DNA from: Barthelona sp. PAP020
Taxonomy: Eukaryota
Direction: 5' to 3'
Length of the DNA stretch: 36,246 nt
Assembly (NCBI GenBank): GCA_040182905.1
Contig: JARQWU010000085.1
Span: forward strand, 1-36,246
Shown: piece by piece, positions 28,287 through 32,144 of the stretch
Layout: every line of letters starts with the position of its first letter
Numbering within the stretch: position 1 is the first letter of the stretch
Notes under the pieces: generated by a model
The model's input: the letters and a program-made list of their open reading frames with translations, nothing else
What the model was told of the DNA's origin: nothing
The model's database searches: none
Position numbers and translations under genes: made by a program

Positions 28287-31200
28287 ATGTGTGAGAATCT
28301 CGAAAATTATCAAAAATCTCTTCAAGACACTTTCAATGATTTTAGTAGTTTTCAAGAGTTCATTGAAAGGGTAGATTTTGATTTAATATTTATGTCTCTT
28401 TCTGAAAGCACTGTATCAATTTTAAATATTGCAAAAGAACTTAAAATTGCGTTTAAAAATGTTAAAAGTGTGCAGGAAGACGCTTTTCTGTTGTATTTTA
28501 GAATGCTCTATTTTTTAGGCATTTTTGAAGAAGTGTCAACAAAAAATTGGACAAATAGTGACTTTGAACAATATTTGCATCGTTTTGTTGAATTTTGTGA
28601 GAAAGCTAAGGTGTTGGTTGAAAATCGAATTTGTTTCAGTTTATTTGGAAAATTTGTGGATGAAAGTTATTTCGAGGATTTAAGTTGTCTGCACCATTAC
28701 CTTGATGATTTAAACCAGAATTTGAGTAATATCGAAAGCAGAAACTTTAGATTGAATTCAAAAATATTAAAGGCAATAGAAACACATGAAAACAAAATTG
28801 ACAATATTTTACGTTCAAAACAAAGTCTTCAAATGAATGAAACAATGTCATCGTTGTTTGTCGCTAAAATAGACCCTGTAGAACATGATAATAAGATGGA
28901 GGAATTACAACGAAGAGTATATGAATTTGAACATAAACTCGTCAGTTCTGGGTTTAAAGTTCCTTTTATTGATTATGACTCATTATCCATAGATGAAAAA
29001 TTAGGATCAGGTGGTTATGGCGCAGTTTATTTTGGACAACATGAATACTCTAATGTTGCCGTTAAGTTTACTTTTAAGTCAACTAAAGAACAAGTTAAGA
29101 ATGAATGCATTGCTATTACATTTCCTCATAAATTTATATGCAAAGTGTATGGTATGACATCTAAGAAAGTGAGTGGTGAAAAAAAATGGGGCATTGTAAT
29201 GGAACATTGCCCAGATACACTGAGTAAAAAGATGTCTGAAATGACTATTCTTGAGAAATTGATCAGCATGTTTCAATTGGCTTCTGCACTGAAATTTTGT
29301 CATGATGAAGGTGTAATTCATCGAGATGTCAATCCAAAGAATGTTTTGATCAGAAATAATGGAACTGCTGCTCTTTGCGATTTTGGTCTTGTTCATTCTT
29401 TTAAAACTGATAACAGGATGTCCAAAACTGGAACCTTATGTTATATGCCTCCTGAATTGGTAAATAATGTTATTTTTGCTCATCCTGGTATTGATTGCTG
29501 GGCATTTGCAACAACATATTTTGAAGTGATGACAATGTTTAAGCCTTTTGAAGGAATTCCTGATTTTAGAATTCCTCTAAAATTATACAAGGGTGAATTG
29601 CCTTTCAAAGCTAAAGATCTTCAGATGGCCATTGGATACAATTTTATATCTCAGTGTTTTAATCGTGACCCCGATAAAAGACCAATGTTTTCAGAAATAG
29701 TTGAGTATCTCGATGGGTTGATTGTTGACTTGAAAAAATGTGTTTCTTTCCTTGTTTGTGATTATTTTAAAAAACATAAATTGGATGAAAATAAGCAGGA
29801 AGAAAAGAAAAGAGTTGAATCCGCTATTTGTGATTCTTATGTGAAACATAGATTATATGAAGTTATTGTTCCAGATAATTTTTCCGAATATTGCAATACA
29901 GATACGATATATCATAGTGTGCGTGATGGAAAATTGGAAGTTGTTAAACAATGGATAAAGGCTGGAAATGAGGGTGAAACTGTTCTTTGGGAGGCTTCTT
30001 CTTGTGGGCACAGTGATATTGTCAAGCTATTGTTGGATTTTGAGGTTGATATCAACTTTTTTAGGAATACTGGTGCTTCTTCGTTGTTTGCTGCCTGTGA
30101 AAATGGGCATGTTGATGTAGTTCGAGTTCTTTTGGATAGGGGAGCTGACGTCAACAAATGCAAGATTAATGGGGTTTCACCGTTGTATATCAGTTGTTTT
30201 AAGGGATATTTGGAGATTGCTGAGATGTTGTTGGATCATGAGGCTAATATTAATTTATGTAGGGATAATGGAAGATCTCCATTGTATGTTAGTTGTCAAA
30301 ATGGTCATCTTGATGTTGCCAAAATGCTCTTGGATCATGGGGCTGATATCAACAAATGTATGAATGATGGTTGTTCTCCATTGTATGTTAGTTGTTTTAA
30401 AGGGCATGCAGATGTTGCAAAAATGCTCTTGGATTATGGGGCTGATGTTAATTTATGTAGAGACAATGGTAGGTCTCCATTGTACATCAGTTGCTTTGAA
30501 GGGCATTTTGATGTCGCCAAAATACTTTTGCCTTATGGGGCTGATATCAACAAATGTATGAATGATGGTTGTTCTCCATTGTATGTTAGTTGTTTTAAAG
30601 AGCATGCAGATGTTGCAAAAATGCTCTTGGATCATGGGGCTGATGTTAATTTATGCAGGGATAATGGCAGATCTCCATTGTATATTAGTTGCTTTGAAGG
30701 GTATCTTGATGTTGCCAAAATGCTCTTGGATCATGGGGCTGACGTTGATTTATGTATGAATGATGGTTGTTCTCCATTGTATGTTAGTTGTTTTAAAGAA
30801 CATGTTAATATGGTCAAAATGCTCTTGAATCATGGGGCTAATGTTAATTTATGTAGGGATAATGGAAGATCTCCATTGTATGTTTGTTGTCAAAATGGTT
30901 ATCTTGATGTTGCCAAAATTCTTTTGGATCATGGGGCTGATGTTAATTTATGTAGGGATAATGGTCGCTCTCCATTGTATATTAGTTGTCAAGAAGGTCA
31001 TCTTGATGTTGCCAAAATGCTCTTAGAGGATCGTAGAGTTGATGTTAATCAATGTGATAAATATGGTTGGTATCCATTGTATATTAGTTGTCGAGAAGGT
31101 CATCTTGATGTTGCCAAAATGCTCTTAGAGGATCGTAGAGTTGATGTTAATCAATGTGATAAATATGGTTACTCTCCATTGCATAGTAGTTGTCAAGAAG

Positions 31201-32144
31201 GTCATCTTGATGTTGCCGAAATGCTGTTGGATTGTGGCGCTGATATAAATTTGTGTGACGATTTTGGGGTTTCTCCATTGTTCATCAGTTGTGAATTAGG
31301 TCATCTTGATATTGCCAAAATGCTCTTGGATCATGGATCTGATGTTAATTTGTGTCCCGATGATGGTAGTTCTCCATTTTCCATCAGTTGTCAAACAGGT
31401 CATCTTGATGTTGCCAAAATGCTCTTGGATCATGGCGCTGATGTTAATTTGTGTATGAATAATGATGCTTCTCCATTGTACATCAGTTGTCAAAATGGTC
31501 ATGTTGATGTTGGTGAAATGCTCTTGGATCATGGCGCTGATGTTAATTTGTGTATGAATGATGGTGCTTCTTCATTGTATGTTAGTTGTTATCAAGGTTT
31601 TCTTGATGTTGCCAAAATGCTCTTGGATCATGGCGCTGATGTCAATTTGTGTGATAATTGTAACCGTTCTCCATTGTATGTTTGCTGTGAAAGAGGTCAT
31701 CTTGATGTTGCCAAAATGCTCTTGGATAATGGGGCTGATGCTACTTTGTCCATGAATGATGGTCTATCTCCATTACATATTAGCTGCGACAAGGGTCATC
31801 TTGAACTTATAAATATTCTATTGGATAATGGTGTTAATGTTGATTTATGTGCAGAAAATTACACCTCTTCATTGCATGTCAGTTGTATGAATGGAAATTT
31901 TGATGTTACCAAAATTTTGTTGGAAAAAGGGGCAAATGTTAGTTTATGCATGAAAGATGGAGCTTCACCTTTGCATCTGTGTTGTGCAAACAATTTTTGT
32001 GATATTGCCAAATTACTTTTGAAACATGGCGCGAATGCTAATATGCTGTGTGATGATCTTACCCCATTAGATATTTGCAATAAAAATGGCTTTAATGAGC
32101 TTGCTCACATACTCATGGAACATGAACAGAAAGATAGCATTTGA
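28287..32144 (+). CDS. MLKL-like four-helix bundle, TKL-type protein kinase and about 22 ankyrin repeats
   Basis: Kinase motifs LGSGGYGAVY, VAVK, HRDVNPKN, DFG and GTLCYMPPE. Then 33-aa SPLYxSCxxGHLDVAKMLLDHGADVN repeats. The N-terminal helical domain has an MLKL-NTD pattern; that part of the call is less certain than kinase and ankyrin. Confidence 0.9.
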   Translation: MCENLENYQKSLQDTFNDFSSFQEFIERVDFDLIFMSLSESTVSILNIAKELKIAFKNVKSVQEDAFLLYFRMLYFLGIFEEVSTKNWTNSDFEQYLHRFVEFCEKAKVLVENRICFSLFGKFVDESYFEDLSCLHHYLDDLNQNLSNIESRNFRLNSKILKAIETHENKIDNILRSKQSLQMNETMSSLFVAKIDPVEHDNKMEELQRRVYEFEHKLVSSGFKVPFIDYDSLSIDEKLGSGGYGAVYFGQHEYSNVAVKFTFKSTKEQVKNECIAITFPHKFICKVYGMTSKKVSGEKKWGIVMEHCPDTLSKKMSEMTILEKLISMFQLASALKFCHDEGVIHRDVNPKNVLIRNNGTAALCDFGLVHSFKTDNRMSKTGTLCYMPPELVNNVIFAHPGIDCWAFATTYFEVMTMFKPFEGIPDFRIPLKLYKGELPFKAKDLQMAIGYNFISQCFNRDPDKRPMFSEIVEYLDGLIVDLKKCVSFLVCDYFKKHKLDENKQEEKKRVESAICDSYVKHRLYEVIVPDNFSEYCNTDTIYHSVRDGKLEVVKQWIKAGNEGETVLWEASSCGHSDIVKLLLDFEVDINFFRNTGASSLFAACENGHVDVVRVLLDRGADVNKCKINGVSPLYISCFKGYLEIAEMLLDHEANINLCRDNGRSPLYVSCQNGHLDVAKMLLDHGADINKCMNDGCSPLYVSCFKGHADVAKMLLDYGADVNLCRDNGRSPLYISCFEGHFDVAKILLPYGADINKCMNDGCSPLYVSCFKEHADVAKMLLDHGADVNLCRDNGRSPLYISCFEGYLDVAKMLLDHGADVDLCMNDGCSPLYVSCFKEHVNMVKMLLNHGANVNLCRDNGRSPLYVCCQNGYLDVAKILLDHGADVNLCRDNGRSPLYISCQEGHLDVAKMLLEDRRVDVNQCDKYGWYPLYISCREGHLDVAKMLLEDRRVDVNQCDKYGYSPLHSSCQEGHLDVAEMLLDCGADINLCDDFGVSPLFISCELGHLDIAKMLLDHGSDVNLCPDDGSSPFSISCQTGHLDVAKMLLDHGADVNLCMNNDASPLYISCQNGHVDVGEMLLDHGADVNLCMNDGASSLYVSCYQGFLDVAKMLLDHGADVNLCDNCNRSPLYVCCERGHLDVAKMLLDNGADATLSMNDGLSPLHISCDKGHLELINILLDNGVNVDLCAENYTSSLHVSCMNGNFDVTKILLEKGANVSLCMKDGASPLHLCCANNFCDIAKLLLKHGANANMLCDDLTPLDICNKNGFNELAHILMEHEQKDSI
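29976..32112 (+). repeat. Coding tandem array of 99-bp ankyrin units, with 198-bp and 102-bp higher-order duplications
   Basis: Recurrent tctccattgtat...ggtcatcttgatgttgccaaaatgctcttggatcatggggctgatgttaattt. The segment gatatcaacaaatgtatgaatgatgg occurs at 30345 and 30543 (198 apart). Near-identical 102-bp units start at 30971 and 31073. Confidence 0.95.

Follow-up and report, generated by a model that had tools for sequence, protein, structure and literature searches.

A kinase-ankyrin protein with a probable MLKL-type N-terminal domain, a candidate one-chain surveillance receptor in the protist Barthelona sp. PAP020

The question raised by this locus is whether one polypeptide of an anaerobic protist could carry the sensor, the activating kinase and the executioner of a cell-death response. 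The gene lies on contig JARQWU010000085.1 of Barthelona sp. PAP020 (assembly GCA_040182905.1), of which we analyzed positions 1 to 36,246 of the forward strand (36,246 nt in all, referred to here as the window). It is a single uninterrupted open reading frame (ORF; Table 1) whose product, the window protein, consists of a helical N-terminal domain (N-domain), a protein kinase and 21 ankyrin repeats with caps, in that order. A reading made without database searches (the sequence-only reading) had described it as an MLKL-like four-helix bundle fused to a kinase and an ankyrin array, with an NLR-like logic. We observed directly the order of the domains, the integrity of the kinase motifs and the existence of a small family with one kinase clade and differing tails, and we put at roughly 0.45 the probability that the protein is a one-chain surveillance receptor in which the repeats sense, the kinase switches and the bundle permeabilizes a membrane.

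Relatives were sought with an exhaustive phmmer search of residues 29–218 against 1.84 billion cluster representatives, in which members within 50% clusters are not visible. Four proteins shared the N-domain at E ≤ 0.001, each labelled in EukProt as a transcriptome protein of Barthelona sp. PAP020; the genus is placed among the relatives of diplomonads in the accessible text of PMC11437800. The N-domain is followed by a kinase and about 8 ankyrin repeats in P0057, by a kinase and about 2 ankyrin repeats in P0056, and by a kinase and a WD40 propeller in P0058, while P0055, labelled a complete ORF, comprises the N-domain and brace only. Across the five members the C-terminal tail is thus made of ankyrin repeats in three, of WD40 repeats in one and is missing from one, so that an effector-switch-repeat layout with exchangeable repeats is present in the family. 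The NLR-like modular logic proposed earlier gains support from this, because the relatives keep the bundle and kinase yet vary in the type and number of their repeats. The choice of start codon is likewise supported, since all five members begin at the same Met, which aligns with M1 of the window protein (5/5 in the family alignment).

Identity to the window protein was patchy along the chain. P0056 was 46% identical in the bundle, 55–73% in the kinase and 91% after it (residues 479–558), and P0055 was 82% identical in the first 39 residues and 50% in the bundle, a pattern that suggests exchange among paralogues, with the limit that Trinity isoforms may be chimeric or truncated. The family appears to be lineage-restricted. 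Metagenome scans gave no N-domain relative among the matches listed, with two loci matching the kinase core only; word-based comparisons gave mainly generic kinases and overlooked known relatives: one missed P0057 and P0058, another recovered two of the three longer ones, and a third brought no new member. They are uninformative on family size. A PADLOC match to one family member (E = 0.011) was disregarded. P0055 has an incomplete internal repeat following helix 4, and may represent a free effector, a decoy or a truncated transcript.

We consider it highly probable that residues 40–180 have the four-helix-bundle fold of the MLKL/MCAfunc/RPW8 clan, because four individually weak tests agree on the clan, on the register in which the domain starts, on coverage of the bundle and first brace helix, and on a kinase following as in MLKL. 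The MLKL-like bundle of the sequence-only reading therefore stands on the concordance of these tests, although no single one of them reaches its usual threshold. The first was Pfam, in which residues 45–168 of P0058 matched positions 4–126 of the 142 in MLKL_N (E = 1.2e-4) at 22.1 bits, below the curated cut-off of 27. No MLKL-clan match was obtained for the other four of the five members, the window protein among them, whose residues 1–228 gave nothing meaningful in Pfam, and the Pfam matches listed for the N-domain family included none to the HeLo or Goodbye models of fungi. The second was a five-row N-domain profile searched against 177,635 PDB sequences. Of its 11 matches at E ≤ 10, six were human MLKL constructs, which filled the top five places (E = 0.068–0.091) and count as one protein rather than six independent matches. 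The best of them aligned profile positions 45–155 with human MLKL 7–120 with one 3-residue gap (E = 0.068, a weak value), in the same register as the alignment previously made by eye, the quoted N-terminal segments of which are all present in the translation. P0058 alone aligned with MLKL gaplessly over 106 residues (E = 0.23, also weak). When the window N-domain was used alone there was no MLKL match among the PDB sequences, and its sole match, alpha-lactalbumin (E = 0.43), was taken as chance. The MLKL sequence signal depends on the relatives, since the window protein by itself gives no MLKL match in Pfam or PDB. Against 176 collected proteins, the N-domain profile found none beyond the family better than E = 0.68.

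The third test was structural, using an AlphaFold2 (AF2) model of the N-domain for which the five family rows were the sole alignment input (mean predicted local distance difference test score, pLDDT, 80.9; predicted template modeling score 0.81; pLDDT of the other models 76.6 to 54.6). The model shows short helices within residues 3–39, four long helices within 45–150 (45–57, 64–85, 91–119 and 126–150) and a fifth at 158–179, in the linker. Among 48,161 representative chains, mouse MLKL (4btf) ranked 4th, with Z = 9.1, a root-mean-square deviation (rmsd) of 5.7 and 122 aligned positions (model 40–180 to chain 2–152), and human MLKL (6ux8) ranked 11th, with Z = 8.4, rmsd 3.9 and 133 aligned. 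Of the top rows, those of MLKL had the highest identity (13–14%), a second structure comparison placed MLKL in four of its seven top rows, and the start register was offset by 38–39 residues in sequence and structure alignments alike. The comparison with the MLKL bundle that had been suggested thus gave Z scores of 8.4–9.1 in the same register, but these values were tied with those of unrelated bundles (HHM, 9.4; CAMP factor, 9.0; gamma-tubulin complex, 8.8; and designed proteins) and fell below 13, the guide value of the structure search for helical folds. Foldseek on PDB had no MLKL among the 49 rows shown, and against PDB and viral models it gave nothing at E ≤ 0.001. In the fourth test, the Atlas feature neighbors of the N-domain were clusters of MCAfunc (top, 0.81), MLKL_N, DUF7792 and RPW8 (0.75–0.81), and the ten best matches with an assigned family all belonged to the clan of the best one (10/10); by that tool's calibration, scores below 0.9 count as leads only.

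Individual residues gave a mixed picture. The family's invariant L69, R72, L74 and F100 map to MLKL L31, R34, L36 and F65, and D141, present in four of the five rows, maps to D107, whereas the K16/R17 positions of MLKL are occupied by I54/A55 in the window protein and that of E111 by N145. In the accessible text of PMC6013482, D107 and E111 are essential for killing and K16/R17 take part in lipid permeabilization. It could be argued that the N-domain has no kinship with MLKL and is a helical bundle of a generic sort, in which case the protein would be one more of the ordinary kinase-ankyrin fusions common in eukaryotes. Every fold test is singly under its usual threshold, and kinase-plus-ankyrin clusters are widespread (for example the Giardia NEK-ankyrin protein P0060). 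We nevertheless regard this as very unlikely, given that Pfam, the PDB profile, structure and language-model features converge on one clan, that the start register is the same and the whole bundle is covered, with brace and kinase after it as in MLKL, and that the 106-residue alignment of P0058 is free of gaps.

Pfam Pkinase covered residues 235–473 of the window protein (E = 5e-36), and the VAVK, HRD and DFG motifs on which the sequence-only reading relied are all in place (at 257, 345 and 365), together with GxGxxG (240), the alphaC Glu (273) and PPE (388). Core motifs were present in all four kinase-bearing family members. The usual catalytic-loop Lys is Asn in the window protein (HRDVNPKN) and Lys in the three kinase-bearing relatives; this substitution, like the 39-residue extension described below, went beyond what had been described. 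From these motifs the kinase is predicted to be active, perhaps attenuated. The best single-domain PDB kinases for the family profile were ZAK/MAP3K20, followed by FAK, MLK1 and Aurora A, and "tyrosine kinase-like (TKL-like)" is a soft label, because these score alike; no RIPK was found among the 60 rows shown. In a tree that sampled 40 of the 141 kinase domains eligible, most of them from metagenome proteins of prokaryote type, and that had no RIPK or plant MLKL kinases, the four family kinases formed one long-branch clade (100/100, with poor outgroups).

An active kinase invites a different division of labor, as in the wheat fusion protein Pm13: the bundle would be a regulatory, perception or localization module, the output would be phosphorylation of other proteins by the kinase, and the ankyrins would recruit substrates or sense a ligand. 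The retention of kinase motifs in 4/4 kinase-bearing members is in keeping with this, as are the lower conservation of the bundle than of the kinase among the relatives (27–50% vs. 43–73% identity), the capping of the bundle by an N-terminal extension, the requirement of Pm13-induced death for brace plus active kinase and not for the bundle, as far as the accessible account goes (PMC11297308), and the occurrence of the MLKL-type fold in PUB13-type ligases, where its partners are U-box and ARM, described in the accessible part of PMC8049495. Yet P0055 has bundle and brace without a kinase, which would suit an effector bundle (or reflect a truncated or mis-assembled transcript), and the MLKL D107 position is retained in 4/5 rows. 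On balance, we regard this Pm13-like division as possible, though doubtful.

The C-terminal half of the protein is an ankyrin array, for which "about 22" repeats had been counted. Pfam marked 21 ankyrin stretches, and we identified 21 regular repeats at residues 562–1256 (19 by pattern, the rest read from the translation) plus two partial caps. Tandem Repeats Finder (TRF) reported a 99-base period at 30231–31850 (16.3 copies, 78% matches). Mean DNA identity among 16 regular repeats was 73%, but the most similar pairs (694/760, and the two 34-aa repeats 892/926) reached 95%, and a two-repeat unit was duplicated at 84–88% DNA identity, pointing to recent internal turnover and duplication. Variability in the 16 repeats was focused on six positions equivalent, by the designed-ankyrin consensus, to the binding face (entropy 1.84 vs. 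0.85 bits; permutation p = 0.0009), and this variable face would suit a binding surface.

Three short helices (3–15, 19–28 and 31–39; pLDDT 83–86 in the AF2 model) make up the N-terminal extension, which falls outside the range aligned to MLKL in both profile and structure alignments. In the five rows, 10 of its 39 columns are invariant and its mean pairwise identity is 0.47, against 0.33–0.48 for the bundle; the extension is a candidate lock or membrane-targeting helix. A second linker helix is probable near 200–219, from a low-confidence model and an amphipathic pattern, and is missing in P0056. Within residues 1–180, the window protein shows no strongly hydrophobic segment (the highest mean hydropathy over 19 residues is 1.26), which makes it harder to see the bundle as a regulated ion channel, or as acting on an internal membrane, with the kinase and repeats controlling MCA-like calcium influx, or osmotic or phagosome signaling, and no death ensuing. 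MCAfunc was the top Atlas neighbor, and Ca2+-influx activity is attributed to the ~170-aa MCA N-terminus in the available part of PMC8049495; selection for suicide would, moreover, presumably be more difficult in a single cell that lives freely. The swapping of tails and the turnover of repeats are, however, more like receptor families than a housekeeping channel, and the family is apparently lineage-restricted. We therefore think such a non-lethal role unlikely.

The mechanism that we favor, the surveillance receptor, would run as follows. At rest, the protein would be autoinhibited by its repeats, kinase and 39-residue extension. Ligand binding to the ankyrin repeats would switch the kinase by changing either its phosphorylation or its nucleotide state, on the model of MLKL and wheat R3AK, and the switched kinase would release the bundle, which, once freed, would oligomerize, driven by the brace, and permeabilize a membrane. 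The purpose would be defense, an infected cell responding with abortive death or an ion flux. Autoinhibition, activation, oligomers, membrane damage and defensive purpose are all drawn by analogy with MLKL and R3AK. In R3AK, bundle helix 1 is needed to kill and a kinase-site mutation auto-activates, according to the accessible text of bioRxiv 10.64898/2026.08.07.743466.

Besides the shortfalls of the fold tests and the unmatched MLKL residues given above, several observations weigh against a killer receptor. Acidic residues outnumber basic ones in the bundle (18 D/E vs. 11 K/R), and the extension that precedes it is conserved to the level of the bundle core. Extra N-terminal helices also occur in fungal Goodbye-like and BaMLKL domains, for which killing cannot be assumed, to judge from the accessible part of PMC9815663. 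For Pm13, killing was seen with brace plus active kinase but not with the bundle by itself (PMC11297308, in the part available), and in PUB13-type ligases and MCA channels, too, the fold has roles other than killing. A variable binding face is normal for any ankyrin array, the mean identity of the repeats is low, and overall pN (nonsynonymous) lies below pS (synonymous) at 0.20/0.41 (uncorrected; 11 repeats). Finally, the family is small, with five members found, and the gene stands alone among housekeeping genes. A wider proposal credits a free-living, anaerobic protist of metamonad type with a family of NLR-like immune receptors of its own, with a kinase replacing the NTPase, in which ankyrin or WD40 sensors and an active kinase would unlock a lethal MLKL-type bundle and the kinase-less bundle-brace member would serve as free executioner or decoy; this we hold only tentatively, and as rather improbable. 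If true, necroptosis-like death would exist far outside animals, plants and fungi.

Table 1. Features of the gene, with positions in the window.
Feature	Position	Strand	Evidence
Whole gene, one ORF, 1,285 aa	28287..32144	+	ORF read in standard code; start common to 5/5 family members
Conserved N-terminal extension, residues 1–39, before MLKL-equivalent helix 1	28287..28403	+	AF2 model, conservation
Probable MLKL/MCAfunc/RPW8-type four-helix bundle, residues 40–150	28404..28736	+	Pfam, PDB sequence profile, AF2 model and structure search, Atlas
Brace-like helical linker, residues 151–225	28737..28961	+	First helix: AF2 model, within MLKL-aligned range
Protein kinase, residues 233–478, TKL-like, predicted active	28983..29720	+	Pfam and motifs
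Post-kinase linker	29721..29897	+	Comparison with P0056
Ankyrin array, 21 regular repeats and caps, candidate sensor	29898..32123	+	Pfam, pattern, TRF, repeat comparison

The window is eukaryotic and of low GC, with densely packed genes and long unbroken ORFs. Neighbors include Rad17-like, SAS-6, eIF2D-type and [FeFe]-hydrogenase genes, and one that we take, from our own reading of its translation, to encode DNA polymerase epsilon. The GC content at third codon positions of the gene (0.25–0.28) is near that of seven neighbors (0.16–0.25) and so does not suggest recent horizontal transfer, and tblastn found no second copy or relic of it within the window. The [FeFe]-hydrogenase gene (4738–6534, +) is complete by Pfam, with 2Fe-2S and 4Fe-4S domains; together with the Barthelona label of the relatives, it fits the anaerobic protist that had been named as the source. 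A stand-alone histidine phosphotransfer (Hpt) protein at 24409–24840 (+) exceeds the Pfam cut-off, a hint of two-component signaling. Small genes at 22228–22713 (−) and 10195–10554 (+) carry DUF6016 and a MobA-like NTP transferase, respectively; both look bacterial and are possible lateral transfers. An 819-aa gene at 25004–27463 has weak GEMI5 TPR and propeller matches, and past its TAA the frame stays open for 121 more codons (27464–27829, +), a candidate read-through, short intron or sequence error whose product has a Cys/His-rich, zinc-finger-like beginning and no Pfam match. An intergenic run of ~21 T lies at 33450–33470, downstream of the minus-strand eIF2D-type gene.

Bundle-plus-active-kinase fusions, MLKL-like proteins with Sel1 repeats and kinase-ankyrin fusions are already known. 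We found no description of a bundle-kinase-ankyrin/WD40 protein in a protist in the literature covered, most subscription papers and supplements lying outside the search, so that the novelty supposed by the sequence-only reading appears to hold for the triple fusion in a protist but not for the bundle with an active kinase, published in plants, or for the Sel1-bearing MLKL-like proteins of Glomeromycotina. A survey of 67 protists reports, in its accessible text, having found no homologue of the mammalian regulators of necroptosis, and judges the pathway likely to be vertebrate-exclusive (PMC7539657). MLKL_N clusters are found in oomycetes in Atlas.

Compared with animal MLKL (4btf, 6ux8, 2msv), the window protein has a bundle, a brace and a kinase-fold domain in the same order; MLKL is the best PDB sequence match of the family's N-domain profile and among the top structural matches of the model, and L31, R34, L36, F65 and mostly D107 are kept. 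Unlike MLKL, which is a pseudokinase, it retains VAVK, the alphaC Glu, HRD and DFG; it also has the 39-residue extension and a long ankyrin tail, K16/R17 and E111 are not kept, and it is MLKL that has RIPK3 as its activator. RIPK4/ANKK1 and other kinase-ankyrin proteins (Giardia NEK-ankyrin) share the order of kinase then ankyrins, with Atlas scores of 0.94–0.96 for residues 38–640, but an MLKL-type bundle was not seen in them, and the kinases of the window family fall into a long-branch clade of their own, in a tree with poor sampling. The N-domain clan is also that of plant MCA channels and PUB13-type ligases, with MCAfunc the top Atlas neighbor; the partner domains in those proteins, however, are PLAC8 or U-box/ARM, and they occur in streptophytes only among 25 green-plant proteomes in the accessible part of PMC8049495.

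The fungal all-in-one NLRs (HeLo, HeLo-like, Goodbye and BaMLKL) resemble the window protein in layout, with an MLKL-fold N-domain, a central switch and C-terminal repeats (PMC12881547, as far as available), and their Goodbye-like and BaMLKL domains likewise have an additional N-terminal helical extension in the accessible parts of PMC9815663 and PMC12881547. They carry a NACHT/NB-ARC NTPase where the window protein has a kinase: no STAND NTPase (NACHT or NB-ARC) was matched among 21 Pfam families at E ≤ 1, and residues 233–478 are the kinase. The part of PMC12881547 available reviews fungal HELL-kinase fusions as well as these four-helix-bundle NLRs. In Glomeromycotina, MLKL homologues with a repeat array have expanded in one lineage, but the repeats are Sel1 rather than ankyrin or WD40, and the likeness is by description, the domain behind the homology being unspecified in the accessible text (PMC8778642).

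The monocot MLKL kinase fusions Pm13 (MLKL-K) and R3AK, which have immune functions in wheat according to the accessible texts of PMC10951266, PMC11297308 and bioRxiv 2026.08.07.743466, combine MLKL_NTD, brace and a catalytic-motif kinase in one chain, as the window protein does, with a weak fold assignment in our case. Both, however, are without a repeat array, the Pm13 kinase is of RLK/Pelle type, and R3AK requires a separate NLR sensor; and because the two use different mechanisms, they cannot fix that of the window protein. By its defining features, the window protein is neither an MLKL nor an NLR, nor a shown RIPK, and its likely mode of action is that of a fusion of the three. With an MLKL-fold kinase family in a metamonad-type anaerobe, the fold reaches another eukaryotic supergroup. 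The family also offers compact, intron-free constructs for asking whether necroptosis-like death serves defense in single cells, in a natural sensor-kinase-effector fusion where the two opposite plant mechanisms, killing by the kinase (Pm13) and killing by the bundle (R3AK), can be told apart.

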